Assembly (NCBI GenBank): GCA_964522045.1
Contig: CAZFSF010000001.1
Span: 1 to 44,867 of the forward strand
Length of the DNA stretch: 44,867 nt
Direction of reading: 5' to 3'
From: an uncultured Desulfobacteraceae bacterium
GTDB taxonomy: Bacteria; Desulfobacterota; DSM-4660; Desulfatiglandales; Desulfatiglandaceae
Under the pieces are notes generated by a model. The model worked only from the letters and a program-made list of their open reading frames with translations, was not told where the DNA came from and made no database searches. How positions within the stretch are numbered: position 1 is the stretch's first letter; each line of letters begins with the position of its first letter. The translations under genes and the position numbers were made by a program. Positions 3,846-44,619 of this stretch are shown here, one piece after another.

Positions 3846-4736
3846 CTACACCCGTTCTATTTCCTTGGTTCCGAATAGCCCATACGGACGGATCATCATA
3901 ACGATCAATACAATCACATAGGCCGTAATTTCATTGATACCGCTACCCAGATAGTCTTCCAGATAAAAGCCGGCCAGGTTTTCCGTGACACCGATGATCA
4001 GCCCGCCTATTATGGCGCCATGCACGCTGTCAAGCCCACCCAGAATAATAGCGGGAAGCGCCTTAAGGCCAACGTGACCCATGATCGGTTCTAAAAAAGT
4101 GAAACTGGCCAGAAACACCCCGGCAATGGTAGCCACGAGAGATGCGATGGCCCAGGAAGCGGTAAATACTCTTTTCACATTGATTCCCATCAAAAAGGCC
4201 GTCCGGGTGTCTTCCGCAGTAGCCCGCATACTGATACCCGCGCCAGAGTATTTGAAAAAGAAAAAAAAGATAATCAGTAGAATCACCGTGGCAACGACGG
4301 TATAGATTTCCGCCTGGTTGACGGCCGCCCCAAAAAGCATTATCGGATCTTCGGGAAAGGGGCTGGGGAACTGGAGTTCTTCATATCCCCATATCAGCCC
4401 GGTAAGTCCCCTTAAGACGTTGGCCAACCCTAAAGTCACCATGATCACTGCCAGAACCGGTTCGCCCACCATTGGGCGCACGACCATCATCTCAAGGATA
4501 GCGGCGATAAGGCCCATCAAGACAAGGGTCACGAGGAAACCGATGACAAAGGGGAGCTTGAGCATGGTGATCAGTGTAAAGGCGACATAGGCCCCAAACA
4601 TCATTAATTCGGGCTGAGCAAAGTTAAAGATATCGGTGGCCTTGAAGATGAGGACAAACCCTAACGCAATACACGCGTAAACGCTTCCCCAGGCAAGCCC
4701 GGTAACAATAAGCTGAACAAAAATCTGGAAGCCCAT
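3846..4736 (-). CDS. ABC transporter permease (LivH-like)
   Basis: 296-aa multi-TM protein starting MGFQIFVQLIVTGLAWGSVYACIALGFVLIF, a typical LivH N-terminus. It is tightly packed between the ligase and LivM-like genes. Confidence 0.85.
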   Translation of the reverse strand: MGFQIFVQLIVTGLAWGSVYACIALGFVLIFKATDIFNFAQPELMMFGAYVAFTLITMLKLPFVIGFLVTLVLMGLIAAILEMMVVRPMVGEPVLAVIMVTLGLANVLRGLTGLIWGYEELQFPSPFPEDPIMLFGAAVNQAEIYTVVATVILLIIFFFFFKYSGAGISMRATAEDTRTAFLMGINVKRVFTASWAIASLVATIAGVFLASFTFLEPIMGHVGLKALPAIILGGLDSVHGAIIGGLIIGVTENLAGFYLEDYLGSGINEITAYVIVLIVMMIRPYGLFGTKEIERV

Positions 4737-7454: not shown

Positions 7455-8261
7455 TCACGAAAGCCAGCGTTTTCTCCGTTTATAATGTTTCACCTCGGCA
7501 AAGCTCTTACGATCCTCGTCCTCTTTGATGCCGAGATAGAATTCCTTAACATCCTCATTCTGCATTAGCTTCCGGCTCGGACCGTCAAGAACAATCTTTC
7601 CATTCTCCATGATATAGCCGTATTCGGAGACGGCTAAGGCCATGAGGGCGTTCTGTTCCACAAGGAGGATTGAAACTCTTTCTTCACTGTTGATTCTTTT
7701 AATGATCTGGAATATCTCGTCCATCAGCATCGGGGCGAGCCCTAAAGAGGGTTCATCGAGCATCATTAATGAGGGACGGGCCATCAGGGCCCGCCCAATG
7801 ACCAGCATTTGTTGTTCGCCCCCACTACAGAAGCCCGCCTGGAGTTTCAACCTCTCTCGAAGTATCGGGAAATAACTTAAGACTTTCTTATAGTCGCGCT
7901 CGACCTCCTTCTTGCCGTCACGACGGGTATGAGAACCCACCTTGATATTTTCCTCCACATTCAACTCCCCAAAAACCCTCCTTCCTTCAGGAACCTGCGT
8001 TATCCCAAGACGAACGATCTCCTGCGGGTCCATCTTGTGGATAGCATGGCCGTCAAATTCTATGGTCCCCTTCATGATCTCTCCGTCCTCGTAGTCTAAA
8101 AGGCCGGATATGGCCGTCAATGTAGTACTCTTGCCTGCGCCGTTTGCGCCTAAAAAGGCAATAACGCTACCGTCCGGCACATCCAGGGAGATGCCCCTTA
8201 ACACTAAAATAATATCATTATATACTGCTTCGAGGTTGTTCACCTGCAACATGAAACTCAA
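7455..8261 (-). CDS. ABC transporter ATP-binding protein (LivF-like)
   Basis: Walker A GANGAGKST, signature CSGGEQQML, Walker B LMMLDEPSLGL. The track start at 8261 is TTG. ATG at 8252 (MLQVNNLEAVY) is an equally plausible start. Confidence 0.9.
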   Translation of the reverse strand: MSFMLQVNNLEAVYNDIILVLRGISLDVPDGSVIAFLGANGAGKSTTLTAISGLLDYEDGEIMKGTIEFDGHAIHKMDPQEIVRLGITQVPEGRRVFGELNVEENIKVGSHTRRDGKKEVERDYKKVLSYFPILRERLKLQAGFCSGGEQQMLVIGRALMARPSLMMLDEPSLGLAPMLMDEIFQIIKRINSEERVSILLVEQNALMALAVSEYGYIMENGKIVLDGPSRKLMQNEDVKEFYLGIKEDEDRKSFAEVKHYKRRKRWLS

Positions 8262-31458: not shown

Positions 31459-31512
31459 TAGATAGTGATGAACTATTTGTGGTTCAAATCATTGAATCGA
31501 TTGGGGGCAGAA

Positions 31513-31770
31513 ATGAAATCACTTACGATTCACGGTGTTGAAAAACCTCTCGCTGATCTGATTAAGGCCAAGGCCGAGTCGGAAGGGTTGAGCATCAATA
31601 AGACCATCAAAAAACTGTTAGAGGAATATCTTGGGGTAAAACCGCAACCTGAGAGGAAAAACCTCCTCGATTTCAAAGCCTTTTGCGGCTTGTGGACCAG
31701 GGATGATCTGGACGAATTCGAAAAGAAAACCCCAGATTTGAGGGAAATTGATGATGCGGACTGGCAATGA
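31513..31770 (+). CDS. vapB: Ribbon-helix-helix type antitoxin (VapB-like)
   Basis: Preferred start is ATG 31513 (MKSLTIHGVEKPLADLIKAKAESEGLSINKTIKKLLEEYLG) after GGGGG. The stop overlaps the vapC start (ATGA). It is small and sits upstream of a PIN gene. Confidence 0.7.
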   Translation: MKSLTIHGVEKPLADLIKAKAESEGLSINKTIKKLLEEYLGVKPQPERKNLLDFKAFCGLWTRDDLDEFEKKTPDLREIDDADWQ

Positions 31771-32177
31771 AAGCGATCATTCTGGATACTAATGCCTACA
31801 CGCGGCTTCTGGCAGGTGATGAAAACGTACTTGATATCGTTGCCTCTGCCCAGACGGTGTACATGTCCATTTTTGTCTTAGGGGAACTCCATGCGGGCTT
31901 TAAGGGCGGCACCAAGGAGAATGAGAACCGTGACGTGTTGAAGAGATTTTTAACAAAGCCCTCGGTTAAAATCTTGAATGCCACGGCAGAAACCGCAGAG
32001 GTCTTTGGTTCTGTAAAAAACCACCTTTTGCGGGCCGGGACCCCGCTGCCCATCAATGATGTGTGGATTTCGTCGCACGGTATCGAAACCGGATCGATCA
32101 TAGTCACTTATGACGCTCATTTTGACTTGGTCCCCGGTTTGAGACTGTGGAACCGGGGCATGTCCGTCAAAGATTGA
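31767..32177 (+). CDS. vapC: PIN-domain ribonuclease toxin (VapC)
   Basis: MKAIILDTNAY carries the first PIN acidic residue, with further acidic residues downstream (ELHAG..., INDVWISSH). It is 136 aa and has a 4-nt overlap with the antitoxin gene. Confidence 0.85.
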   Translation: MKAIILDTNAYTRLLAGDENVLDIVASAQTVYMSIFVLGELHAGFKGGTKENENRDVLKRFLTKPSVKILNATAETAEVFGSVKNHLLRAGTPLPINDVWISSHGIETGSIIVTYDAHFDLVPGLRLWNRGMSVKD

Positions 32178-32197: not shown

Positions 32198-35197
32198 CTA
32201 TTTCCCTGCAAAGGGAACTGACAATAATTCGATCAATTCCTCCCTTGAAAAGCTCTTCAGCACCCCGGGGTCCGTCTCTTTGACAATGTTGTCCATCAGG
32301 TTTCGCTTCTTCTGGATGATGGCGGATATTTTTTCCTCTAGGGTACCCTCTGTTACCAGCTTGAAGACATGCACGCCGCGTCTTTGCCCGATTCTGTGGA
32401 CCCTGTCTGTTGCCTGGTCTTCCTTGGCAGCATTCCACCACCTGTCATAATGAATGACGATTGACGCGGCCACCAGATCAATACCCACGCCTCCGGCCCT
32501 GAGGCTTCCTAAATATACCCGGCAGTCAGGGTCATTGTTGAATCTGGATATTATTCCGCCTCTGTCCCGGCTTTTTCCGGTAAGGGTAACAAAGTCCACA
32601 CCCTGTTTCTGCAGAAACATCTCCATGATCCCTATCATCCCCAAGAACTGGCTGTATACAACCACCTTTTGTCCGCTGTCGAGACTCTCTCTTAGGATTT
32701 CCTTAAACAGCTCCCACTTGCCCGACTGGTATTTCTCATAATCATCCATCCTCTCCTTCATCATGGCAGGATGATTGCAGATCTGTTTGAGCAGGTTGAG
32801 CAGGGCAAAGATGTGGATATAGGGGATGGTCTCCTTATCGTTCCGCAGGGACTGCAGCAACCCGCGTCCCCTTGAAGCAATTGCGTCCCTGTAAAGCTTT
32901 ACCTGATCCTCGCTGAGTTCGCAGGTCCTGATATCTTCGATTTTTTCAGGAAGATCCTCAAGGACTGTCTCCTTCCTGCGACGAAGCGTAAAGGGTGATA
33001 TGAGCCTGGTCAATCCCTCCTGTTTATCGCCGGCAGGATCAAACTCCATAGGCTTTACAAATCCGGTCTCAAAATCCTGGTCTGTCCCGAGATAGCCCGG
33101 GATTGTCAGGTCAAAGAGGGCCTTTAACTCCATCAACCTGTTCTCAATCGGTGTTCCGGTCAAGCCCAACTTCATATCCGCCTTAATCTCTTTTGCAGCC
33201 AAATAGGCCAGTGTCTGCGGGTTCTTGATGTACTGGATTTCGTCAAAAACGGCCAAAGCAAAGGGAATATTCTTCAACTTATCAATATCCCTTCTCAGGA
33301 TCCCATAGGAGGTTAGCAATAAACTGCTTTTACCAACGGCGTCTTCAAAATCTCTCTGGCCCCCATGATACACAACTGGTTTCAGGCCCGGGGCGTGCTC
33401 GCCCATCTTATTGTTCCAGTGGCTCAAAACAGTGGTGGGGCAGACCACTAAGAAAGGACCAACTATCCTTTCATGCTCTCGCATGCAAACCATAAAGGAC
33501 ATGACTTCATGGGTCTTGCCCAGACCCATATCATCACACAAAAGCCCTCCGAATCCATTTTCAAAAAGAAAACGAATCCACTCCACTCCTAACTCCTGGT
33601 AAGGCCTGAGGGTTGAGGTTATCCCATTAAGTTTGGGTAGGGATGCGACAGGTTTCAGTTCAAGCATTCTCTTGAACAGGTCAACCTGTTTGCCATTTCC
33701 TGTCACGTCAATGGGACTCCTGACACCGGCCTTTACACGGAAAAGGTCCATTCGGGCAAGCCCGACCCCTTTTGATCTTGCCGATGATTTCTCCTCTTTA
33801 TGCCGGTCCAGAACAGCATCAAGATTAGCCAGTTCAGGAGATTCACAATCAACCCAACCCCCGTCAGTACCGATGTAACGCTGGCCCTCCTTCTTGGCGC
33901 TCAGAATTTCAGCAAGAGAGATGAACCTGTTTCCAAAACCATATTTTACGGAAAGCCAGCACCAGTCTCTGTCCAAAGACTCAGGGCTGATCTCTATCCG
34001 GTCGAATTCTCTTATGATTTTAAGGGATTTCAGGTCCTCATCCACAAGGCGTTCAGTGTGCTCATCAACAAACTCATCAAAAAAGATAGGGACCTGGGAC
34101 TTTTTAAGCACCATCTTCACCGGCGCCCTGAACTTCCTCTCTCCCCTCCCCTCTGGCTCCAATTCCGCAAGGATACCCATCTCCTTGATATATATGAGAT
34201 CGCCATAGCGAAAGCGCTCCATGTCTTCTCTTTCAAAAAATCTTGACTCTCCGTCCTCCTGTATAAGCTGGATCAGAGGCCGGACCTCTATATCCAATTG
34301 GGTATACGAGCTGACCTTGAAAATCGATTTGAGCGGTATGGGGTGTATGGCCAGTTCATGTTGATTGGGAAGGAGGTCATCAAAAGCGGTGAGTAGCCTT
34401 TTTACCTTGATACGCGGAATTATCATGCGAAAGAGAGTTTCCTCTCCCCTCTTTTTGACAGAAACAGTGAACGATCCTGAGGTTTCCTCAATGGCAGGAT
34501 GAAAGGTACAGGCGTCAGGTCCGAACTCCCGATATCCATGATAGGCAACCCGGTACCAGAAACTCTCCTCCATAACCTGCCGTCGTGTCTTAAAGCCCTT
34601 ATCGTGCATCATGCGTTCATTCTCTGTGAGGGTCATGAGCGCAAGTCTCTGAAGAATCGTGCCCCTGCTGGGGATGGAATCCCCTTCAGGGACCTTGCCG
34701 CACCGCTCCAAGAATCTGGACCGGCCAGGCCCGTCTGCCATATAATAGAACATCTCCTCTCCAGAGGAACCGTACACCTTTATCACGCTTTTATCATCAG
34801 AACCCAGCGACTGCATCCGGACCGTCTCCGGCCGTTCCCTGCAGCCATCCGCCATGATCTCTGCACAACGGTACCAAATGCTTGATCTGAAATCATCTTC
34901 AAAGGTCTTTCCTCCGAACCTTTCGGTAACGGCCTTATTAGCCTTAACCAACTTCAGGATATGGGCGCAGGTGCGAGTAGCAGAAATAGAACAGGAGCAA
35001 TATCTCTGCCTTAAACCGGTTGTTCCACCTTCCACAAGAATGGCTATCCCTGGTCTCCTGTCCGAGGGAGCCGGGAATAGCGCCAGACCCTGCCGGTGAA
35101 ACTCGATCAGCCCAAAATCCGCTTCAGAAATGCCCGGATTGGCCCTTTTCCTTTTGCCAGTCTCTTTGGTTTTTGCTCTTCCTTTTCTTTCTTTCAT
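32198..35197 (-). CDS. SNF2-family helicase/translocase with N-terminal SWIM zinc finger (999 aa)
   Basis: SWIM CSCSISATRTCAH (CxCx8CxH). Helicase motifs LCDDMGLGKT, DEIQYIKN, LTGTPIENRLMELKALFD and DRWWNAAKEDQATDRVHRIGQ. Confidence 0.9.
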   Translation of the reverse strand: MKERKGRAKTKETGKRKRANPGISEADFGLIEFHRQGLALFPAPSDRRPGIAILVEGGTTGLRQRYCSCSISATRTCAHILKLVKANKAVTERFGGKTFEDDFRSSIWYRCAEIMADGCRERPETVRMQSLGSDDKSVIKVYGSSGEEMFYYMADGPGRSRFLERCGKVPEGDSIPSRGTILQRLALMTLTENERMMHDKGFKTRRQVMEESFWYRVAYHGYREFGPDACTFHPAIEETSGSFTVSVKKRGEETLFRMIIPRIKVKRLLTAFDDLLPNQHELAIHPIPLKSIFKVSSYTQLDIEVRPLIQLIQEDGESRFFEREDMERFRYGDLIYIKEMGILAELEPEGRGERKFRAPVKMVLKKSQVPIFFDEFVDEHTERLVDEDLKSLKIIREFDRIEISPESLDRDWCWLSVKYGFGNRFISLAEILSAKKEGQRYIGTDGGWVDCESPELANLDAVLDRHKEEKSSARSKGVGLARMDLFRVKAGVRSPIDVTGNGKQVDLFKRMLELKPVASLPKLNGITSTLRPYQELGVEWIRFLFENGFGGLLCDDMGLGKTHEVMSFMVCMREHERIVGPFLVVCPTTVLSHWNNKMGEHAPGLKPVVYHGGQRDFEDAVGKSSLLLTSYGILRRDIDKLKNIPFALAVFDEIQYIKNPQTLAYLAAKEIKADMKLGLTGTPIENRLMELKALFDLTIPGYLGTDQDFETGFVKPMEFDPAGDKQEGLTRLISPFTLRRRKETVLEDLPEKIEDIRTCELSEDQVKLYRDAIASRGRGLLQSLRNDKETIPYIHIFALLNLLKQICNHPAMMKERMDDYEKYQSGKWELFKEILRESLDSGQKVVVYSQFLGMIGIMEMFLQKQGVDFVTLTGKSRDRGGIISRFNNDPDCRVYLGSLRAGGVGIDLVAASIVIHYDRWWNAAKEDQATDRVHRIGQRRGVHVFKLVTEGTLEEKISAIIQKKRNLMDNIVKETDPGVLKSFSREELIELLSVPFAGK

Positions 35198-35536
35198 TCG
35201 ATGCTTTTGTCTTCCGAAAACCTGGAAATCAAAAATGTCTAAGATTGTTTATGAATGTATAGTGAGTTTAAGTTGTTTTAATTAAACACCACAACCACCG
35301 CAGAGATCGCAGTGACCGCAGAGTTTACGTTTTTATTGTTTCCTTTTGCTTCATTAATCGCCCGTCAGGGCTTGGTTCTGCCCAGATCCTGAGTCTTTCT
35401 TCCAGGATCTGGACAAAACCAAAAAAAGAGTCCTTTGCGATCTTCGCGTCTTGAGCGAAGCGGGCGGTGAAAAACATTCTCTCACTTACCCGCAATCCAA
35501 AATCGTGCCTGAATCATGCCAAGTCGTGATTGTCGT

Positions 35537-35758
35537 TCAGGCACTAAATACATCTCCGGCAGAACGTGACCGCAGCGACTTTCCCCTAAATGCAGTAGCA
35601 AATTTCTGCGCCCAGTTGACATACCAGATCACCATCGACTCTGCAACCCCGGAATCAACCACGGCCTCATGGAATTTCTTCCAAAACTTATTGATATTCT
35701 CCGATTTTTGTGTCATTTTAAAAACCTCTAAAACTCCGGCATCAGGCACAATAGGCAT
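35537..35758 (-). pseudogene. Tyrosine recombinase N-terminal (SAM-like domain) remnant, integron-integrase-like; catalytic domain missing
   Basis: The 73-aa ORF KFWKKFHEAVVDSGVAESMVIWYVNWAQKFATAFRGKSLRSRSAGDV resembles the N-terminal SAM-like helix region of IntI/Xer-type integrases (compare IntI1 ...EQAYVHWVRAFIRFHG...). It stops after that region. Only ~340 nt of non-coding, repeat-rich DNA follow before the next gene. Confidence 0.5.
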
Positions 35759-35958
35759 CCCGCTTTACGCCCTTCCCTGCCAAACCACTGTTGCATAGGC
35801 GAGGGATGCCGTTACGGAAACTTGCTAAATCAGGACTCATTGTACTACACAGAATATGCCACTATTTTCAAGTGCAGAATATGATAATATTGGATATCTG
35901 CTAATGCGTATACTATGTTATAGCGATTACAAAAAAATAGAATGAATTAGGTGGAAAA

Positions 35959-36267
35959 ATGAATAATACAAAACATACAATTATAACTGGCGATTCACGA
36001 AAAATGATTGAGGTTGCGGACAGTTCGGTTCATCTCGTGATCACATCACCTCCGTACTGGCAATTGAAAGATTATGGAATGAATGAACAAATCGGATTTA
36101 ACGATAGTTACGAAAATTACGTAAATAATTTAAATCTGGTTTGGAAAGAATGTTATCGCGTTTTAGATGATGGATGCAGACTCTGTGTAAATATCGGGGA
36201 TCAATTTGATCTTTCAGTTTAAAGTATTCCAATAAAAATCGAAATAATGAAGTTTCGTGAAAGTATT
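35959..36267 (+). pseudogene. Stop-interrupted, truncated beta-class (PF01555-like) N4-C/N6-A DNA methyltransferase
   Basis: Motif IV VHLVITSPPYWQLKDY, then RLCVNIGDQF. An in-frame TAA sits at 36220-36222. The same frame continues as SIPIKIEIMKFRESI (homologs as I recall read ...GRYKVIPI..EII.F.E.IG), after which similarity ends. The SAM-binding FxGxG half is absent. Confidence 0.65.
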
Positions 36268-36309
36268 GATTTGTATCCTAATGAAACCGCCAGAAATTCA
36301 GAAAAACAA

Positions 36310-37296
36310 TCATATTATACAAATTGCTGTTTCCAATGATTTGGATGATATTTTATAGATGACTGTATGAGAATTAATTTCGATGTTTTCTTTGTCACCT
36401 ATCTCAGTACACCTTGTGGAAAATTCTCTGATTGCGTTGTTCGATAAGTATTGGTTTCCATTCTCCAGGAGCGCTACCAAATCAATTGTTTCTATTTTTT
36501 TTGAACGATTGTAGTGTAGACGGAAGGAGCTAAGACAATAATAAAGGTATTCTAAAACCTGATCAAATGGATCTTGCTTATTTTTAGCCAACTTTATCTC
36601 AATAAGTGCAAGCCTGTCTTGTGCATCTATGAGAACATCCACTTGGCGCTGGAAGCCCAGAACGAATTGATTGAAATACGATCCTTGTTTATAGAAGGAA
36701 GCAAGGAATTCGTAAAGATAGCCTTGACATCTCTTATTTAATAGAAGTACCTCCACACCTGCTTCGCTGACAGGCCGACGAAGCACAGAAACTGGAAAGA
36801 CAGACTCAATATCAGGAGGAATTTGTGGTCGATTAGAGGAAATGGCATTCCCTAATCGCAGTGTTTTTTCTATGAGATAATTGCCTTCATTTGTAGTAAG
36901 GGGTGTTGCATTTACTTGTTTATTCGCAATGAGGGTGGCGATGATGTGTCTGTTCAAGACAAATGAGATCTTAGAAGCATCTCTTTCGTCTGAATAGAGC
37001 TTAACCATGGGCGTAGCTTTGGCCATTTCAGTTTTGAACCACACTCTATTTTTATAACGTGCATTACCTCGTCTGTCCCTACCATAGATGGGACTTCTGT
37101 CGACACATTGTTGGTCAGAAACAATTTCAAACGGGCCAAACACTACCCATTTGAGTCCGTCAAATAAAAAAGCTATGTCGCCTGCTTTGACATTTGCAAG
37201 CGAATTTGAAACTGAGGCGCCAAAGCAGCAGTGCTCAAGACATTCTTGAGTGAACTTAGTTGTAAAGAATACATGGTAGGTTCTCATATTATTCAT
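36310..37296 (-). CDS. PUA-superfamily (DCD/EVE-like) domain fused to a PD-(D/E)xK nuclease domain; candidate modification-dependent (type IV-like) restriction enzyme
   Basis: The N-terminus YHVFFTTKFTQECLEHCCFGASVSNSLANVKAGDIAFLFDGLKWVVFGPFEIVSD...RYKNRVWF follows the DCD/EVE pattern (T..EC....FG....v..G...FLF....l.G.FE..S....fP.rV.F). The C-terminus QRQVDVLIDAQDRLALIEIKLAKNKQDPFDQVLEYLYY carries a D...ExK nuclease core (NucS/DUF91-like). Confidence 0.6.
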   Translation of the reverse strand: MNNMRTYHVFFTTKFTQECLEHCCFGASVSNSLANVKAGDIAFLFDGLKWVVFGPFEIVSDQQCVDRSPIYGRDRRGNARYKNRVWFKTEMAKATPMVKLYSDERDASKISFVLNRHIIATLIANKQVNATPLTTNEGNYLIEKTLRLGNAISSNRPQIPPDIESVFPVSVLRRPVSEAGVEVLLLNKRCQGYLYEFLASFYKQGSYFNQFVLGFQRQVDVLIDAQDRLALIEIKLAKNKQDPFDQVLEYLYYCLSSFRLHYNRSKKIETIDLVALLENGNQYLSNNAIREFSTRCTEIGDKENIEINSHTVIYKISSKSLETAICII

Positions 37297-37634
37297 TTGA
37301 AAGAATTAGTGAAGTTCAAAAACGACCAGGGTTAATTTCCACTTTTTCAAGTTATCGATGTGATTAATCTATTTGCACTTTGGAAGGGTAGAGAAATATC
37401 TGGCCATTAAACATGCTTATAGAAGCCTAGCAAAAAAACGGTGTGATTTCTAGAGATTTGTAGCGGAATTTTTATTTTTTTGCGAAATGTATAGTCTGCA
37501 ATATCATCAGATATACTATATGATGTGCCAACAATCTAGGCCGGTTTGTATTCTCTAATTGCCTAATCATCTCAGTTAACTGTAGATGGAAGATTTCTAA
37601 CGCTCTATATTGACTTAAGGGAGAAAGAACTCAA

Positions 37635-37781
37635 ATGACTAAAACAGTAGAGATTTATATATACGATTTACAACCAAAAGCGAGGGCCAAATTGCTGGAA
37701 GCATTTGAAACAACGATTGAGGATGAAAACTGGGACACTTTCCCAATTGCAATAATTGAACGGGAATTAGATGATAGGTGA
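37635..37781 (+). CDS. Small acidic hypothetical protein (48 aa)
   Basis: Below the ORF-track size cutoff. ATG 37635 lies after AAGGGAG. Translation: MTKTVEIYIYDLQPKARAKLLEAFETTIEDENWDTFPIAIIERELDDR. Its TGA (37779-37781) overlaps GTG 37778 of the next ORF and ends 8 nt before that ORF's ATG at 37790. Confidence 0.35.
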   Translation: MTKTVEIYIYDLQPKARAKLLEAFETTIEDENWDTFPIAIIERELDDR

Positions 37782-37789
37782 TCTTAATA

Positions 37790-38128
37790 ATGTATTTTCA
37801 GTTTAGAGGAGAAATTTTGGTAGAAATTTTGGGATGCAAGATAGAACCGGCACCAGATGAATGGGATAGAACATATGGGGTTGATTTTTATATAAAAGTG
37901 AATGGTAGTTTTATAGGAATCCAGATTAAACCAATTTCTTCCGGACAATCTATCAATCAATATCAATGGGTAGAAATGCATCGAAAAAATCATGAACGAT
38001 TTAAAAACGATTTTGGAGGTCATGTCTTTTTCGTATATTCTGTCAAAGGTTCAGGGAAAAAGAAAAAGATTTACAATACAGATGTGATTGACAAAATCAT
38101 TGAAGAAATAGACCGATTAACACACTGA
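37790..38128 (+). CDS. Small PD-(D/E)xK-like nuclease-fold protein (MjaI restriction endonuclease-like?), 112 aa
   Basis: ATG 37790 is preceded by AGGTGA (track start GTG 37778 is also possible). The core YGVDFYIKVNGSFIGIQIKPISSG has a D...(Q)xK arrangement that I associate with MjaI-type/mini restriction folds. The family call is tentative. Confidence 0.45.
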   Translation: MYFQFRGEILVEILGCKIEPAPDEWDRTYGVDFYIKVNGSFIGIQIKPISSGQSINQYQWVEMHRKNHERFKNDFGGHVFFVYSVKGSGKKKKIYNTDVIDKIIEEIDRLTH

Positions 38129-38133
38129 AAAAT

Positions 38134-38256
38134 AGCGAACAAGACGTTCAAGATTGACGGGCAGGAACGAGCGGTTTGCTCTAAACACCAGCTTCGTTTT
38201 ACCAATTGCTACGATTTTACCGTGCCCCCTGCCCGCAACTTAACTCTGCGTTATTT
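38134..38256 (+). mobile_element. attC-like integron recombination site (123 nt)
   Basis: R'' AGCGAAC (38134-40), 5-nt spacer, L'' GTTCAAGATTGACGGGCAGG (38146-65), 62-nt central part, L' CCTGCCCGCAACTTAAC (38228-44), 5-nt spacer, R' GTTATTT (38250-56). The L arms give 17 bp with 3 single-base bulges. The AACAAnnCGTTCAAG...CTTAACTCnGCGTTA layout mirrors the aadA1/aadA7 attC as I remember it. Confidence 0.6.
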
Positions 38257-38289
38257 GCCGCATAGACTAAAAGGTGGAAATATAACCGA

Positions 38290-40503
38290 ATGATCGAAAA
38301 AGATTTTGAAATATCGTTTATTGCGGACCTTGCACTGCGCGAGAAACAGATTCAGCAAAACTACCGTCCGATTATTGCTGTTCATAAATGGTTTGCCAGA
38401 CGTCCGGGTACGCTGTTTCGTGGACTGCTTTTGTCTGAATTCTCGGAAAGACCGCTTAGAGAGGTGTACTACAAGACGAACGATCTTTCAGGCCGCCATG
38501 TTGCTGATCCGTTTATGGGTGGGGGAACGCCGATTCTGGAGGCAAACCGTGTCGGATGCAATGTGATTGGATTTGACATCAACCCCATGTCTTATTGGAT
38601 TGTCAAACAGGAAATTGAACATCTTAACCTGGATGATTATTCGGATGCAGCCAAGTTACTGCGCTCAACTCTTGAAAAGGAAATCGGGTATCTTTATCGA
38701 ACACAATGCACTTTTTGTGGATCACATGATACCCACGTAAAATACTTCCTTTGGGTGAAAGTAATGCCATGCAAAAAATGCGGAAAGGAGATTGATCTCT
38801 TTCCCGGTTATCTGCTGTCGGCTGATTCCCGACATCCCAGAAACGTCTTTGTGTGTCCGGCTTGTGGAGAATTAGCCGAGACCGGAGATCGGAAGAAGCC
38901 CGGCAGATGTATTCATTGTTCTTTTGAACTGACCGCAGACGGCCCTGCAAAAAAAGGCCGTTGCAAATGCCCTGAATGCGGCGCTGACAACCATTTCCCA
39001 AATCCACATCTTGGGGCACCGACGCACCGCCTTTTTGCAATGGAATATCATTGCCCTAAATGCAAACCTTCTCATAAGGGCAGATTTTTTAAAAAGCCAG
39101 ACGCTCAGGATATCGTAAAGGTTAAAGAGACCTCAAAACGCTTTTCCAGGATACGTTCAAAGTATATTCCTGAGGCTGAGATCCCAAGCGGTGACGAAAC
39201 GAACCGTCTGCATCGCTGGGGATATACACATTACCGGGAAATGTTTAACGATCGGCAACTTCTCGGGCTGGAACTTTCTGCCCGAATTATTGCTGATACA
39301 TTCAATGATCGGGTGCGTAATGCGTTGGCAACAAACCTTTCCGACTTGCTCCGTTATCAAAATATGTTGTGCCGCTATGACACAAGGGCACTAAAGTCTC
39401 TCGATATTTTCTCGGTTCACGGATTCCCGGTTGGGTTGATTCAATGCGAGTCAAACTTCCTTGGGATCATGGAACCAGGCCGAACTATGTGTATCGGCAG
39501 CGGCGGATGGGCTAACATCATTGAAAAGTTCAAGAAGGCTAAATCCTATTGTGACCACCCTTTTGAAGTTAGGTTTCAAGGGCGCGCAAAGAAAATAATC
39601 CCTATCAAAGGTGAATGGATCGGAGATCACTTAAACGGTGGTGACACCGAACCAGCGAGAGTCGTTAATATCTCATGCCAAGACGCTGCGTCTTCCAATC
39701 TGCCGGATGGTTTTCTGGACGCCGTCTTTACGGATCCTCCCTATTTCGCCAATGTTCAGTATGCTGAACTCATGGATTTTTGTTACGTCTGGCTGAAAAA
39801 ATTGGTTGGCCAGAAGTTCCCTGCATTCAGTGCCGTTTCTACACGCACACCTGATGAATTGACCGGCAATGTAGACATGGGGCGGGGACTCGATCATTTC
39901 ACACGAGGAATTTCTGCTGTATTTCAAAAAATGTCGAAGGCACTAAAACCCGGCGCACCCCTGGCATTCACTTATCATCACAATACAATCGAAGCGTATT
40001 ACCCCGTGGCGGTGGCGCTCCTTGATGCAGGTCTGACCTGTTCTGCATCGCTTCCCTGTCCTGGCGAAATGGGTGCATCCATTCATATCAATGGGACCGG
40101 CTCATCCGTAATCGACACCATCTTTGTTTGCCGGACAACAGGCGTCATGCAGCGAAAATGGATAGCGGATTCGCCACATGAGCTTGCCGGAATTATAGGA
40201 AAAGACTTAAACCATCTCAAGGCCGGAAATGTCAAACCGACTCGTGGCGACATCAGATGTGTTACCTATGGGCATCTAATCCGGTTGGCGACCTGGTCCT
40301 TGCGACTTAACTGGAATAAGAACAAACCAACAACATCACGTATCGAAAAAGTGGCAGACTGGCTCCAACGCTTCGGTGGTTGGGCCGAGGTCGAAAAATG
40401 CATGGAGCACGTTAAAAGAGAAACGACAGAGGATATGCCGTTGTTTTCTGTGCATGAGAGCGATGCAAATTATGGAGATGAATATGCCGACGTTCCCTTT
40501 TGA
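38290..40503 (+). CDS. DUF1156-type DNA methyltransferase with multiple Zn-ribbons (COG1743-like, N6-A/N4-C)
   Basis: N-terminal DUF1156 signature AVHKWFARRPGTLFRGLLL, SAM motif VADPFMGGGTPILEANRVGCNVIGFDINP, and catalytic motif VFTDPPYFANVQY. Inserted Cys pairs: CTFCG...CKKCG, CPACG...CIHC, CKCPECG, CPKC. Confidence 0.85.
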   Translation: MIEKDFEISFIADLALREKQIQQNYRPIIAVHKWFARRPGTLFRGLLLSEFSERPLREVYYKTNDLSGRHVADPFMGGGTPILEANRVGCNVIGFDINPMSYWIVKQEIEHLNLDDYSDAAKLLRSTLEKEIGYLYRTQCTFCGSHDTHVKYFLWVKVMPCKKCGKEIDLFPGYLLSADSRHPRNVFVCPACGELAETGDRKKPGRCIHCSFELTADGPAKKGRCKCPECGADNHFPNPHLGAPTHRLFAMEYHCPKCKPSHKGRFFKKPDAQDIVKVKETSKRFSRIRSKYIPEAEIPSGDETNRLHRWGYTHYREMFNDRQLLGLELSARIIADTFNDRVRNALATNLSDLLRYQNMLCRYDTRALKSLDIFSVHGFPVGLIQCESNFLGIMEPGRTMCIGSGGWANIIEKFKKAKSYCDHPFEVRFQGRAKKIIPIKGEWIGDHLNGGDTEPARVVNISCQDAASSNLPDGFLDAVFTDPPYFANVQYAELMDFCYVWLKKLVGQKFPAFSAVSTRTPDELTGNVDMGRGLDHFTRGISAVFQKMSKALKPGAPLAFTYHHNTIEAYYPVAVALLDAGLTCSASLPCPGEMGASIHINGTGSSVIDTIFVCRTTGVMQRKWIADSPHELAGIIGKDLNHLKAGNVKPTRGDIRCVTYGHLIRLATWSLRLNWNKNKPTTSRIEKVADWLQRFGGWAEVEKCMEHVKRETTEDMPLFSVHESDANYGDEYADVPF

Positions 40504-41518
40504 AGTTACCCTGGAAGAAATTCTCAGAGATCCGGAAAACTATGTTGATTCTGTGTTTTCATGCCTGGAATCGGAATTCCTCGTTATGCCCAAAGGGGCA
40601 GGATTTGTGGAATACCCTGTTTTCGAACGTGGTTATGAAGCATTGAAAGCAGCCACAGATGGATTTTCCATTCTTGATCCTGACAAGGTTTACCCTGTGA
40701 CAGTTTTCAGTCCTATTTCGATTGTGGTTCTGCGAACCATACTTGGTTTTACACCTCCGGAGTGGGGCTATGTAACTATGCAAAGAACCGGCGTGCAGGT
40801 TACACAGGGCTTTGTGCGTTCTCTGGATCGGAAGGTCCGAATGGCGCCTGAAACGGAACTCAAGACAAACGGAGTTACGAAGGAACGACTTGAGGCGATG
40901 GTTCAAACCGCGTGTCAATTGCTATCGGCCAGTGCTCCCGAAGTAGACATTGATCAATTGCACCGGTTGAACAAGGCCGATACAAAACAGGGTGTTTCCA
41001 GCATCAAGAATCTATCTCGAATAGGTGCTCCCTATGCCATGCTGTTGTATGAACGGTTGCTTGGAAGGCCTTTTGCCGGACATCGTGACTCCGTTAGCGA
41101 GATTATTGGCGACAGCTTAGAGTCTGCCATCGAGGATGTTCTCTCCAAAGCGGGCATTAGTTTCCGTAAAACCAAACGAGCGGAACGAATCGAAGGTTTC
41201 GACCAAACGCCGGATTTTATCATACCCAGTGAATTCAATCCGCAAATTGTCATAGAGGCAAAGATTACAGAAGACGATGGCACAGCGCGTGATAAGGTGA
41301 CACGCATTCAACATCTTGGTGAATTGAGCCTTGCCGGAAGATCCGAAGATAACCCAAAATACGAAGTTATTGCTTGTATCGGTGGACGTGGCTTCGGTGT
41401 CCGCAGGGAGGATATGAAAAAGATGATCCTTGCAACGAGGGGCAAGGTGTTTACTGCGAAAACTTTGGATCGTCTTGTTGAATGTACCCGATTAAGAGAA
41501 TTTAAGGCAAATCAATAG
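40484..41518 (+). CDS. PD-(D/E)xK restriction endonuclease-like protein (344 aa), probable partner of the DUF1156 methyltransferase
   Basis: Preferred start is ATG 40484 (GGAGA 6 nt upstream), overlapping the methyltransferase 3' end by 20 nt. The C-terminal core GDSLESAIEDVLSKAGISF...TPDFIIPSEFNPQIVIEAKITEDDGTARDK is a textbook PD...ExK motif. The N-terminal ~230 aa are unassigned. Confidence 0.6.
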   Translation: MPTFPFEVTLEEILRDPENYVDSVFSCLESEFLVMPKGAGFVEYPVFERGYEALKAATDGFSILDPDKVYPVTVFSPISIVVLRTILGFTPPEWGYVTMQRTGVQVTQGFVRSLDRKVRMAPETELKTNGVTKERLEAMVQTACQLLSASAPEVDIDQLHRLNKADTKQGVSSIKNLSRIGAPYAMLLYERLLGRPFAGHRDSVSEIIGDSLESAIEDVLSKAGISFRKTKRAERIEGFDQTPDFIIPSEFNPQIVIEAKITEDDGTARDKVTRIQHLGELSLAGRSEDNPKYEVIACIGGRGFGVRREDMKKMILATRGKVFTAKTLDRLVECTRLREFKANQ

Positions 41519-41522
41519 AAAG

Positions 41523-41593
41523 GCCTAACGGGCGCTCCACCTGACCACTATGCCGCTACGCTCTATAGCGGAAGGTGGGCGTAGTCGTTCGTT
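41523..41593 (+). mobile_element. Second, weaker attC-like site (71 nt)
   Basis: R'' GCCTAAC (41523-29; a perfect RYYYAAC). Stem CTCCACCT (41535-42) pairs with AGGTGGG (41573-79) with one bulged T. An inner hairpin ccgcta/tagcgg follows, then GTTCGTT (41587-93). The 3' flank shares 15/20 nt with the 3' flank of the 38134-38256 site. Confidence 0.4.
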
Positions 41594-41812
41594 GCCTCAT
41601 AGATATCCACATTCTGAGGGGTAAAGAAATCGCTTGAATCGGACTATCCGGGCTCAGAGACCCCGGCGTTACGCCCGATTCATGGCTTCGCCACCGGGAT
41701 TTCAAAGCCAGCCCAACCGGCAGAGCCGTAAGGATTCTGGGCACAGAGGGTAAGGGTTTCCATTTTGGACTAAACATCATTTTGTTTGTTAAATCCGGAA
41801 AAGGAGGGCATT

Positions 41813-42601
41813 ATGAAATTGGAAATTATTTCAAGAAAGCCAGAAGGTGTTTCTCGTGAAGTACCAATCCTTTTTGTTCATGGTGCATGGCATGGAGCAT
41901 GGTGCTGGGAAAAAAACTTTATGCCCTACTTTGCTGAAAATGGCTATACCTCTTATGCGTTGAGTTTACGGGGGCATGGAAATAGTGAAAGACCTGCACA
42001 TTTCCGCTGGATGCGCATCGCTGATTATGTGGAAGATTTGGCACAAGTGGTGGACCAACTACCTGAAGACCCGGTGATAGTTGGGCATTCAATGGGCGGT
42101 CTGGTTGTTCAGAAATATTTGGAGGAACATACTGCGCCCACGGCCGTATTGCTGGCTTCCGTTCCCGTCAAAGGCGTGTTGCGAACGACCCTTCGGATTG
42201 CCCTTCGTCACCCGCTGGTTTTTTTGAAAGCCAACCTCACCTGGAGCCTATATCCGATAATCGGGAAGCCGAGACTTACCCGGGAGGCCTTTTTCTCTAT
42301 GGATACCCTCCCTGATACGCTAAATGGGTATTTTAGTCTTATGCAGGATGAGTCCTATCTCGCTTTTTTAGACATGATGTTTTTCAAACTACCGAATCCT
42401 GAAAAGGTCTCAACGGAATTGCTAATCATTGGCGCAGAGAACGATAACATATTCCATCCTGATGAAATACAAGCGACTGCGGCAGCATATGACAAAAAGC
42501 CTGAGATCTTCAAAGGGATGGCACATGATATGATGTTGGAGGATGGATGGCAAACTGTAGCAGATCGAATACTCGAGTGGCTTCATGAAAAAGACATATG
42601 A
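41813..42601 (+). CDS. Alpha/beta hydrolase
   Basis: ATG 41813 follows AAGGAGGG (track start 41786 is TTG). Nucleophile elbow VGHSMGG and N-terminal ILFVHGAWHGAWCW. Confidence 0.8.
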   Translation: MKLEIISRKPEGVSREVPILFVHGAWHGAWCWEKNFMPYFAENGYTSYALSLRGHGNSERPAHFRWMRIADYVEDLAQVVDQLPEDPVIVGHSMGGLVVQKYLEEHTAPTAVLLASVPVKGVLRTTLRIALRHPLVFLKANLTWSLYPIIGKPRLTREAFFSMDTLPDTLNGYFSLMQDESYLAFLDMMFFKLPNPEKVSTELLIIGAENDNIFHPDEIQATAAAYDKKPEIFKGMAHDMMLEDGWQTVADRILEWLHEKDI

Positions 42602-42757
42602 TTCAAAACAGTACCAATGCTTGAAATCCTATGTCGCCGAATCAGCCAATACACCTGGTCCCAAAAGCTGGCCCCATAAACAACTTTAAGGATTAGACAG
42701 ATATTCTCTTTCTTGACATTATGTGGAAAGTTTTGGCGCAGGTGACCGCCAGTTAGC

Positions 42758-43420
42758 ATGCCGAGGATACTATTTATGACTCCATCATTGACAAAGATGA
42801 GTCTAACGGAAGGCACAGTATACTTAGCTGGCCGCGACAACGATCTCGCACGCCTCCTCGTGGCCGATGGTGTACCGCCCCTTTGGGAAAGAAAGCCCTG
42901 TTTTTCGACATTGATCCACATTATTCTTGAACAGCAGGTGTCTCTTGCATCAGCTAAAGCTATGTACCGTCGACTAATCGATAGCTTGGTACCATTTACA
43001 CCAGATCGTTTTTTGGAATTGGGTTCATCATATCTGAGTTCGCTGGGTGTCACTCGACAGAAAGCAGCGTATTGCATTAATCTTGCCGAGGCAATTCTTG
43101 GGGACCGACTTGATCTAAGAGCCGTATCCAGAATGGATGACTTTGCTGTTGTTGACACACTTACTCGAATCAAAGGCATCGGTCCCTGGACCGCAGGTAT
43201 CTATCTCTTGATGGCCCTGCGCAGGCCAGATGTCTGGCCCTCTGGGGACATTGCGCTGACAAATACAGTACGAAAGGTGAAGGGCCTTCATGAGTATCCA
43301 TCTCCATCTACACTATCCAGAGTTGCTGAGACCTGGCGTCCTTTTCGGTCAGTTGCGGCGAGAATGCTGTGGCATCACTACTTGTCGAACAAGACTCAAG
43401 TTGTATCGGAGGCACGCTGA
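42758..43420 (+). CDS. DNA-3-methyladenine glycosylase II-like (AlkA/HhH-GPD family)
   Basis: ILEQQVSLASAKAMYRRL, HhH LTRIKGIGPWTAGIYLLMAL, and catalytic-Asp region WPSGDIAL. Confidence 0.8.
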   Translation: MPRILFMTPSLTKMSLTEGTVYLAGRDNDLARLLVADGVPPLWERKPCFSTLIHIILEQQVSLASAKAMYRRLIDSLVPFTPDRFLELGSSYLSSLGVTRQKAAYCINLAEAILGDRLDLRAVSRMDDFAVVDTLTRIKGIGPWTAGIYLLMALRRPDVWPSGDIALTNTVRKVKGLHEYPSPSTLSRVAETWRPFRSVAARMLWHHYLSNKTQVVSEAR

Positions 43421-43550
43421 CAACGCTATTCACCAAATGAACTATGTGTGACGCCGCTTGCGACGCAAGGGTTGCGCCACCAGTCCGCTGGTGATGCCAC
43501 GAGGTTGGCGGAATAAGCAGGAATCAAGAAAAAATTGTGAGGAAAGCCCT

Positions 43551-44453
43551 ATGAGCTTAGAAAAAGAGTCTTATGAAAGAATTATTGAGAACCTCCATGA
43601 CGGGTTATATCTTGTAAACCGAGATAGGGTCATAACATACTGGAATAAGGGTGCTGAACGGATTTCCGGATTCACCACTGATGAGGTTGTTGGTCAATCC
43701 TGTTCTGATAATATACTCACCCACGTCGATGGTGAAGGCAATAGTCTTTGCACCGGGATGTGCCCTCTTGCCGCAACCATTGCAGATGAAAAGCCTCGCG
43801 AAGCTGAAGTATACATGCACCACAAGGATGGTCACAGAATACCGGTTTCTATTCGTGTCAGTACATTAACCGACAGAGATGGTAATACAATCGGTGGGAT
43901 AGAATTATTTACAGATATCAGCAATCAGGCAGCCAATGAATTGAGGGTAAAAGAACTTGAAAAGTTGGCTCTTCTTGACAACCTTACTCAATTAGCAAAC
44001 AGAAACTATATTGAGGGAGAAATCAAAAGCAGATTCGAAGAGAAAAAACGTTTCAACGTACCATTTGGTATTTTCTTCATAGATATTGACCATTTCAAGA
44101 AATTTAATGACACTTATGGTCATGATGTGGGGGATGATGTTCTTAAATTTATTGCGAATACTTTTGTTGCCAACGCCAGACCATTTGACCTCTATGGACG
44201 CTGGGGGGGAGAAGAGTTTATTGGCATTATACGTAACATAAAAGGCCAAGACCTTGAGGAACTGGGGAACAGGCTTCGTTTACTGATAGAAAATTCATAC
44301 ATAATTCATGAGAACGAAAAGCTATGTGTCACAATTTCAATTGGAGCCACACTCGTTAACGAAAAAGACACTATTGACAGCCTCATAAAAAGAGCCGATA
44401 CTCTTTTGTATAAAAGCAAAGCAGCAGGAAGAAATTGTTTGACAATAGGTTGA
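43551..44453 (+). CDS. PAS domain-containing diguanylate cyclase (GGDEF)
   Basis: Preferred start is ATG 43551 (GAGGA upstream). PAS-like region LHDGLYLVNRDRVITYWNKGAERISGF. Active site GGEEF with an RPFD (RxxD) I-site 5 residues upstream. Confidence 0.85.
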   Translation: MSLEKESYERIIENLHDGLYLVNRDRVITYWNKGAERISGFTTDEVVGQSCSDNILTHVDGEGNSLCTGMCPLAATIADEKPREAEVYMHHKDGHRIPVSIRVSTLTDRDGNTIGGIELFTDISNQAANELRVKELEKLALLDNLTQLANRNYIEGEIKSRFEEKKRFNVPFGIFFIDIDHFKKFNDTYGHDVGDDVLKFIANTFVANARPFDLYGRWGGEEFIGIIRNIKGQDLEELGNRLRLLIENSYIIHENEKLCVTISIGATLVNEKDTIDSLIKRADTLLYKSKAAGRNCLTIG

Positions 44454-44619
44454 ATAATATCGCCGAACCAATCAATGCCCTTGACCCCAAGGAGCGCTGT
44501 TTTTCAAGCTTCCCAAGTTGGCTTTTTAAGGTGTATTTCCCAATACCCGGTCCCCTTGGGGCAAGTGGTTTCAATCGTTATATGGTTTTGAATTTAATGA
44601 AAAAAAAAGGAGGTAAATC

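Follow-up and report, generated by a model that had tools for sequence, protein, structure and literature searches.

A probable sedentary chromosomal integron with a truncated integrase gene and restriction-type cassettes in an uncultured deltaproteobacterium

What holds together the row of genes that follows an SNF2-helicase gene at 35.2–44.9 kb of contig CAZFSF010000001.1 (assembly GCA_964522045.1, from an uncultured Desulfobacteraceae bacterium) is the question raised by this locus. The whole stretch of DNA analyzed, 44,867 nucleotides in length, is hereafter referred to as the window. Read from left to right, the region consists of the SNF2-helicase gene on the minus strand, a spacer of 340 bp, a short open reading frame (ORF) also on the minus strand, and then mostly plus-strand genes; the G+C content is 36–39% over 35.5–38.5 kb, the first ~2.5 kb of the array, versus about 48–50% in both flanks. 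The interval 35.5–44.6 kb is very likely a sedentary chromosomal integron whose integrase has been lost, occupying a fixed locus beside the SNF2-helicase gene in an uncultured lineage of Deltaproteobacteria. In the terms of IntegronFinder, the locus is a cluster of attC sites lacking an integrase (CALIN) with an adjacent intI pseudogene.

Integrase stump, platform and fixed locus

The left end of the array is made up of the following features; related loci are designated by labels of the form L001.

32198–35197, minus strand: SNF2-helicase gene, the anchor gene adjoining the stump
between the SNF2 gene and the ORF at 35537–35758: repeat-like spacer, 340 bp
35537–35716, minus strand: integron-integrase gene stump of 59 amino acids, matching the extra N-terminal SAM-like domain of IntI proteins of ~405–455 amino acids; everything past residue 56 is lost
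35717–35916, no strand assigned: conserved non-coding platform, presumed Pint/Pc and attI arm, 86–94% identical in L013–L017, which then diverge
35850–35866 and 35875–35891: direct repeats CAGAATATG..ATT (family D18), upstream of the 35917 junction
35917–35923, plus strand: GTTATAG, presumed attI crossover box (G/TT) and start of cassette 1

An initial annotation of this DNA, made from its letters alone, had reported a 73-amino-acid remnant of an IntI-like integrase at 35537–35758 on the minus strand. The ORF is present and its relatives are integron integrases, with the correction that only 59 amino acids (35537–35716) are homologous, because the start shared by the relatives is Met15 of the ORF, at 35716, from which the conserved ORF reads MTQKSENINKFW... 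The 73-amino-acid ORF gave no Pfam or NCBIfam match of its own, and no continuation of the stump was found in any frame. A search of 5.8 billion proteins returned 15 relatives, all of 42–100 amino acids and 70–100% identical, one of which carries PF13495. When the longest relative was used as a phmmer query against 1.8e9 representatives, 393 matches were obtained. TIGR02249, the integron integrase model, was the best model for all ten of the long matches tested (300–455 amino acids), eight of them scoring above its curated cut-off, so that the better fit to Xer or phage integrases foreseen as a possible outcome in the initial annotation did not materialize. In each long protein the TIGR02249 match begins at residue 117–182, so that the stump query corresponds to an additional N-terminal domain preceding the canonical core. 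Compared with the 435-amino-acid integron integrase P0026, the stump shows 42% identity over residues 5–56 (E 7e-15). Of a complete integron with an intact integrase, carrying the IntI-specific insertion (TIGR02249 / intI_Cterm), the locus has the 59-amino-acid stump only.

In many metagenome contigs, as well as in one metagenome-assembled genome (MAG) titled 'Deltaproteobacteria bacterium', the stump adjoins an orthologous SNF2 gene of ~90% DNA identity; judged from these alignments, it occupies a fixed locus and is not a dispersed repeat. A genome collection scanned with the stump pattern gave no match, and a further scan with the SNF2 protein yielded the one MAG contig, L035. The same truncation is common to the window, L035, L036 and L001–L010, and five other lineages cut the stump shorter, at codons 25–36. 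The term 'dead' holds for this intI copy only. A scan of the whole window found zero tRNA genes, from which it follows that the array is not a tRNA-targeted island.

Comparison of the platform among relatives located the point at which arrays begin to differ. Five related arrays cease to match the window at position 35916, directly before GTTATAG and ~200 bp from the stump start, or no more than ~10 nt away from it: the window, L014/15 and L017 are identical up to ...GTATACTAT (35916), L016 up to ...GTATACTA, L013 parts ~10 nt earlier, and all differ beyond. Past the junction the window reads GTTATAG and L017 reads ..ATGTTATGCC, with GTTAT at the junction. The platform is thus described here as a candidate attI site. 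Attribution of attI to an 8-bp inverted repeat with the enclosed GTTGCAT (35754–35810), as first suggested, was only partly sustained: both are in the sequence, but the repeat is not conserved in relatives and the junction lies ~125 bp rightward, at 35917. A main junction at 35790 was ruled out, since only L009 and L012 break near that position instead of 35917. In L001–L010 the entire 35760–35916 arm has been lost. Scanning of 35.2–38.4 kb for sigma-70 promoters and terminators gave a site count no higher than in shuffles, and a promoter-like site at 35856–35885 on the plus strand was no better than chance. The two direct repeats at 35850–35866 and 35875–35891 presumably recall the DR1/DR2 arrangement of attI1, a resemblance taken as a lead and not as a test. 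An element with a DDE_Tnp_IS66 transposase gene lies exactly at the presumed attI junction in L014 (~4700–4710) and L015 (~30–40), reading ACTATATG followed by GTAACC..., where it adjoins a DruA gene.

attC sites and the cassettes they bound

A search model for attC sites was built from plasmid integrons. The aadA1 attC sequence was confirmed in 2,515 plasmid records, and 19 different attC sites were extracted from 11 class 1 arrays. Model R1 consisted of the aligned arms of class 1 attC sites (trimmed to 60 nt) with the canonical structure, and it recovers plasmid sites, some long ones included. Since R1 penalizes long loops, a second model, R2, was made from 27 full-length plasmid sites after their alignment with R1; R2 tolerates long loops and contains zero sequences from the present lineage. 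The attC calls rest on this surrogate and not on the published IntegronFinder model attc_4.cm, and R2 E-values are rough, its calibration having been shortened; whole-window scans were run with filters off. Three sites were recognized in the window.

38134–38256 (R2 match 38137–38256), plus strand: attC1, end of cassette 1, 5 nt past a stop codon; 17.9 bits, E 0.021 in the window (rank 1) and 0.003 in 35500–42000; boxes R'' AGCGAAC, spacer, L'' GTT[C]AAG..., L' CTTAAC, spacer, R' GTTATTT
41523–41593, plus strand: attC2, end of cassette 2, 4 nt past a stop codon; R'' GCCTAAC, R' GTTCGTT; 11.4 bits, E 1.0 in the window (rank 3) and 0.15 in 35500–42000
44462–44583, plus strand: attC3, absent from the initial annotation, 8 nt past the stop codon of a GGDEF gene; R'' GCCGAAC, R' GTTATAT; 14.6 bits, E 0.15 in the window (rank 2); same match in L029

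These are the three best R2 matches in the 44.9-kb window, and all lie on the plus strand, in intergenic DNA, full-length to the model and just past stop codons inside the array; all other window matches score at most 9.9 bits, and those displayed as alignments fit the R boxes only. The sites at 38.1 and 41.5 kb, named from the outset as attC-like folded sites in the correct orientation, take R2 ranks 1 and 2 in 35500–42000. With the third site the array runs to at least 44583, so the right end originally set at 41604 falls short.

Structural features of the sites were examined in turn. In attC1 every single-base bulge is on the R''/L'' arm, and the DNA fold has an energy of -21.1 kcal/mol (z -2.4); DNA-fold z-scores range modestly from -1.5 to -2.7. 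In an energy scan of every AAC...GTT pair, 41527–41589 was the top hairpin of the window by energy density and 38138–38252 had the lowest energy among the top hairpins listed; energy ranking alone is modest evidence, as 8–10 hairpins per strand clear a similar threshold. The layout R''(RYYYAAC)-spacer-L''...L'-spacer-R'(GTTRRRY), with extrahelical bases on the '' arm, was found, the full R-box consensus being only partly matched (AGCGAAC/GTTATTT, GCCTAAC/GTTCGTT and GCCGAAC/GTTATAT). R2 thus found what characterizes a CALIN, two or more same-strand attC sites with E<1 and separated by under 4 kb; the spacings are 3.3 and 2.9 kb, and attC2, at E 1.0, is borderline. A blastn-short search of the two originally named sites against all loci gave no repeats, and the attC sites accordingly do not form a uniform repeat family. 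A regular-expression finder for R''/L'' was discarded as too unspecific, with ~30 matches in 6 kb.

In line with the proposal that related loci be searched for further sites, R2 identified attC sites beside the same stump in L036, L017, L016 and L013, all on the cassette strand and reading away from the stump.

L036, 5079–5208: 24.3 bits, after an MjaI-type endonuclease gene
L017, 5380–5504: 22.9 bits, overlapping the stop codon of a DUF6602 gene
L017, 3115–3234: 22.6 bits
L016, 619–689: 19.5 bits, 6 nt past a SEC-C gene, bulges on the '' arm
L013, 2095–2168: 17.8 bits, ~50 nt off the junction
L017, 1721–1843: 10.9 bits, a weaker site

Nothing comparable was found by R2 in the non-integron locus L038. 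Over 12 aligned attC sites, AAC and GTT are invariant; pairing in the L-box helix reaches 92%, and 13 of its 15 pairs show double-sided changes; the covariation score was 0.39 versus 0.13 in shuffles (none of 500 reached 0.39) and 0.05–0.08 with partners slid, in an alignment fitted to the R2 model, which favors the structure of that model. A motif TTGCC-N-CATAGA follows the R' box of attC1 (38254–38266) and of attC2 (41591–41603) and also occurs at 35791–35802, the 35790 site once proposed as attI; variants are GTTGCATAGG near the stump and GGCGTATAGG in L036 (~2215–2232). It may be an extended cassette-start or box motif.

The sites delimit the following units.

35918–38256, plus strand: cassette 1, ending with attC1
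35959–36222, plus strand: N-terminal stump, 87 amino acids, of an MjaI-type N4/N6 DNA methyltransferase, with the SPPY motif only (Pfam N6_N4_Mtase 1–57/221; PADLOC MTase_II PDLC03259 2–82/423, E 3e-41)
36310–37296, minus strand (inverted): gene for a 328-amino-acid EVE/YTH-type (PUA-like) reader plus PD-(D/E)XK nuclease, assigned at fold level
37635–38128, plus strand: 48-amino-acid ORF plus C-terminal stump, 116 amino acids, of an MjaI-type restriction endonuclease (Pfam RE_MjaI 102–160/164; PADLOC REase_II PDLC03450 104–194/197)
38251–41593, plus strand: cassette 2, ending with attC2
38290–40503, plus strand: 737-amino-acid DUF1156/HmaB/PglX-like DNA methyltransferase (NCBIfam DUF1156_antiphage 94 bits, below cut-off; Pfam MethyltransfD12 and N6_N4_Mtase; PADLOC PglX/HmaB/DUF1156_MTase)
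40484–41518, plus strand: 344-amino-acid PD-(D/E)XK-type nuclease, its gene overlapping the methyltransferase gene (weak TPD, EcoRII-C and PDDEXK_11 matches, E 4e-4 to 0.2)
41594–44583, plus strand: third block, with an alpha/beta hydrolase (41786–42601), an HhH-GPD glycosylase (42758–43420) and a PAS-GGDEF cyclase (43458–44453), assigned by Pfam; non-defence genes
44620 onward: DsrE-like gene, after attC3

Compact ORFs in the same orientation, attC sites right after stop codons and ends at the crossover in different arrays, as expected of integron cassettes, were all observed, the exceptions being the inverted nuclease gene, the three-gene third block and one junction in L036 that has no attC. 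The gap from stop codon to attC is 4–8 nt, and the distance from cassette start to ATG is 33–38 nt for cassettes 1, 2 and 4 and ~190 nt for the third block. The cargo first listed (a dead methyltransferase, a PUA-nuclease as the only inverted gene, a small ORF plus mini-nuclease, and a methyltransferase plus nuclease pair) is borne out by Pfam, PADLOC and fold as far as the descriptions go; it forms two attC-bounded cassettes and not four units. Likewise, the idea of an integrase-dead store of anti-phage cassettes fits the first 5.7 kb, and the array continues beyond 41604 into non-defence genes.

Activity of the 87-amino-acid methyltransferase stump of cassette 1 is, from its sequence, predicted to be impossible. 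The orthologues in L036 keep longer stumps (methyltransferase 2–133/423, endonuclease 59–195/197), which identifies the stumps as eroding remnants. That they could be conserved small functional proteins was considered, as the whole arrangement recurs in L036 and L038 and the methyltransferase stumps are 75% identical in amino acids, and was rejected because the truncation points differ. For the 328-amino-acid protein between them no sequence-level family match was found in Pfam or PADLOC, and a PDB sequence search was empty. Its AlphaFold2 model (pLDDT 87.6, pTM 0.84) matched in Foldseek, over one part, PH1033 (1wmm, target-normalized TM-score 0.67), which we take to be an EVE-domain protein, and a YTH domain (6rt4, probability 0.91), and over the other part the SfsA, McrC, XisH and Shedu nucleases; the sequence holds a D...EIK motif (VDVLIDAQDRLALIEIKLAK). 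The fusion of a modified-base reader to a nuclease, characteristic of Type IV restriction enzymes, is thus predicted at fold level only, and from the model this EVE-nuclease probably works as a modification-dependent restriction enzyme. We infer that cassette 1 is what remains of an MjaI-type restriction-modification operon, now dead, the inverted nuclease gene having taken the place of its core.

The same sandwich of methyltransferase N-terminal stump, EVE/YTH plus PD-(D/E)XK gene and MjaI-type endonuclease C-terminal stump occurs in three contexts: window 35959–38128, L036 5230–7567 and L038 5279–7300. In L038–40, where it adjoins dnaA/parAB/gidB and is not part of an integron, the nuclease gene points the other way and no attC is present. 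It seems that a modification-dependent nuclease gene replaced the core of a type II restriction-modification operon and that the wreck then travelled as a block.

Cassette 2, with the same gene calls as in L029, looks intact and, judged by its genes, its methyltransferase and nuclease probably still work as a restriction-modification system; a PDB sequence search with the 344-amino-acid nuclease was empty. Homology of the third block with L009 is limited to the hydrolase gene (41773–42624).

Variation between arrays and competing explanations

The genes found beside the stump vary from contig to contig.

L002–L006: ParB_N-like genes
L009: HEPN/MNT, AAA_14/DUF4143
L014: DruA plus IS66-family transposase
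L016: SEC-C
L017: DUF6602, Cdd1, nitroreductase and others
L029–L034: same array as the window

L036 is the most informative relative for cassette boundaries. Its order is stump, methyltransferase stump, inverted 329-amino-acid nuclease, MjaI-type endonuclease, attC, four extra genes, 737-amino-acid methyltransferase and 344-amino-acid nuclease. The extra genes (Ogt-like DNA_binding_1, Cdd1, PRiA4_ORF3 and a 289-amino-acid protein) represent at least two attC-bounded cassettes, placed exactly between attC1 and cassette 2, and the 94%-identical match of L036 to cassette 2 of the window stops at 38256, the last base of the attC1 R' box. The Cdd1 cassette is common to L017 and L036 (86.5% identity), and in both its left end is at the R' of the upstream attC, which in L036 has decayed to ATTAGCC.

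These observations are accommodated by a course of events that draws on established integron biology. An ancestral IntI would have captured cassettes singly, the folded bottom strand of attC recombining with attI at G/TT (35917/18), and the cassettes proximal to the platform would have been expressed from a platform promoter. Truncation of intI would have come afterwards and, without the enzyme, attC sites and cassettes would erode, some related arrays having lost attC sites or attI.

A number of results weigh against a sedentary integron at this locus. R1 scored neither the 38.1-kb nor the 41.5-kb site in the window, with or without filters, attC2 is marginal (window-wide E ~1), and Rfam yielded no family match anywhere in the window. 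With R2, no attC was detected inside the 3-kb third block, and nothing comparable was found on L009 or in the ParB-type arrays among L001–L010, in which the attI arm is lost. Complementarity is poor at the outer four R-box pairs, with 68% pairing in helix 1 over the 12 sites, and the cassettes are large (2.3–3.3 kb). Downstream sequences of the L017 and L036 copies of Cdd1 differ, and cassette 2 of L036 is preceded by coding sequence without an attC. Finally, no intact IntI from this lineage was seen, the sole MAG contig found (L035) carrying the stump alone.

Because arrays differ between contigs that share the same intI lesion, they must have changed later, via IntI acting in trans, homologous array replacement or deletions. 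It is accordingly possible, if doubtful, that the array is not frozen and that cassettes are still excised and inserted by an intact IntI, encoded at another genomic site or by a mobile integron passing through, making it a working satellite array and not a fossil. Differences among arrays with the same truncation and the same downstream sequence (window, L036 and L001–L010) speak for such activity, as do the canonical L boxes and bulges kept by attC1 and attC3 and the finding that half of the surveyed CALIN elements sit in genomes encoding an IntI (PMC4889954). However, some junctions are clearly not at G/TT, among them the L036 junction, where an attC is missing, and those of L001–L010, in which the attI arm is gone; moreover, the R boxes are degenerate and L035 carries just the stump.

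The stump itself could have been kept for a purpose. Among copies with the same stop codon (window, L002/L010 and L035/L036), the ratio of nonsynonymous to synonymous substitution rates (dN/dS) is 0.17–0.39, from small counts, the differences being mostly synonymous; from these sequences, purifying selection on a stand-alone N-terminal domain is possible. On account of this ratio and of the differing arrays among same-stop copies, it was considered whether the stump is retained as a stand-alone SAM-like protein, such as a binder of the attI platform or a regulator, with arrays changing after catalytic loss through IntI in trans or homologous exchange of whole arrays, which we regard as unlikely. 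A weak match to the attC model (10.7 bits, GCCTAACAAAGC...GGGGTTAATT) coincides exactly with the truncation point of the integrase stump in L002 (1828–1879), L003 (1600–1651), L006 (755–806) and L010 (1450–1501), on the minus strand; it could hint at the route by which intI was truncated, or be due to chance.

It is improbable that the locus is simply a defence island occupying a recombination hot spot next to the SNF2 gene, with turnover by homologous or illegitimate recombination, hairpins that are terminators or chance folds and a stump that is an unrelated relic. The cargo of the relatives (DruA with its IS66-family transposase, HEPN/MNT, AAA_14/DUF4143 and ParB_N-like genes) is of the kind usual in defence islands, no attC was detected in some arrays, fold z-scores are modest, and the block of two stumps and a nuclease also exists outside any integron in L038–40. 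By contrast, a model trained on plasmid attC sites picks hairpins that follow stop codons, always on the cassette strand, in five arrays, and nothing comparable in the ~35 kb of flanks or in L038; these hairpins have their bulges on the R''/L'' arm, as in canonical attC, and are without a trailing T-run, and the relatives of the stump are specifically integron integrases.

In L009, two direct copies of the stump 5' end (4565–4720 and 7956–8141, 84% identical) flank variable genes; one of them directly borders the hydrolase gene, which in the window comes after attC2, and the SNF2 gene of L009 has internal deletions. The double copy could represent two fused platforms or an assembly chimera (4.3x coverage in the contig name). 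A single integrative island that entered the 5' end of an integrase-like gene and duplicated it, the direct repeats being att sites, would explain why two copies of the first ~100 nt of stump and leader flank variable genes in L009, but it is most improbable, since these copies are just 84% identical and no fresh target duplication, the window has neither a second copy nor a long direct repeat across 35.2–42 kb, and the array is modular, L036 differing from the window by an internal block only. The insertion as one island with simple direct-repeat att sites, contemplated in the initial annotation, likewise gave way to a fixed locus with differing arrays that have their own attC sites.

Further observations concern the anchor gene and its surroundings. 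The SNF2 protein has strong PADLOC scores for DpdE (418 bits) and ZorD (344 bits), the partner genes of neither being nearby, and a VapB/PIN-like pair (31465–32177, plus strand) adjoins its gene. The spacer separating it from the stump contains a G+C-rich hairpin, CTGCGGTCACTGCGATCTCTGCGGTGGTTGTGG, at 35287–35321, and similar spurious ORFs of 52 amino acids flank the SNF2 gene on both sides in related contigs (L001, L002, L005 and L008). The occurrence of these ORFs on both sides suggests a small repeated element.

Comparison with known integrons

CALIN elements were defined with IntegronFinder, which keeps attC sites with E<1, and intI pseudogenes were found within 10 kb of 15 of 279 of them (Cury et al. 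2016, PMC4889954). The locus described here resembles them in having two or more attC sites on a single strand, at spacings below 4 kb, and no functional integrase, with the intI remnant adjoining the array. It differs in that the remnant is the N-terminal extension only, without the IntI_Cterm and PF00589 parts that were screened (PMC4889954), so that the screen would miss it. Remnants of this kind would escape the usual pseudogene screens, which use C-terminal and catalytic profiles, and some 'orphan' CALIN elements may have unnoticed stumps.

At the level of single sites, attC1 shares with class 1 attC (aadA1, blaCARB-2 and others) the R''-spacer-L'' / L'-spacer-R' layout and much box sequence, AACAAgaCGTTCAAG...CTTAACtctGCGTTA in attC1 versus AACAATTCGTTCAAG...CTTAACTCAAGCGTTA in aadA1. 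By contrast to class 1 sites, its outer R-box bases are unpaired, there is one extra bulge and the variable loop is ~55 nt. Sites of the present lineage score 11–24 bits with R2, versus 34–74 bits for plasmid class 1 sites.

Chromosomal integrons of Xanthomonas occupy a fixed locus downstream of ilvD, have an intI that is mostly inactivated, and carry restriction-modification and other phage-defence cassettes (bioRxiv 10.1101/2025.06.18.660453). A fixed locus across a lineage, inactivation of intI by a large deletion and restriction-modification or defence cassettes are common to both, whereas the phylum is another and the anchor is an SNF2-helicase gene. Xanthomonas strains with the same lesion usually share the array (10.1101/2025.06.18.660453); at the present locus, contigs with the same lesion differ.

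Phage-defence cassettes (BRiCs) are present in mobile integrons and, reportedly, in the V. cholerae superintegron, and homologues of their systems exist outside integrons without attC (bioRxiv 10.1101/2024.07.02.601719). Defence genes, two-gene systems and restriction enzymes occurring as attC-bounded cassettes are shared with the present array, and the homologues outside integrons parallel the EVE-nuclease block of L038–40. The differences from BRiCs (10.1101/2024.07.02.601719) are that the present array, in an uncultured anaerobe, has a dead integrase and one wrecked cassette, and that its defence role is predicted from its genes.

Both integrase-dead integrons and defence cassettes are already published, and the present element is a well-supported but ordinary example that leaves current understanding unchanged. 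It adds a well-documented sedentary, integrase-dead integron from an uncultured sulfate-reducer-type deltaproteobacterium, a group poorly represented in integron surveys, and the restriction-type defence genes of its array agree with recent thinking, in which integrons serve as reservoirs of cassettes for defence against phages.

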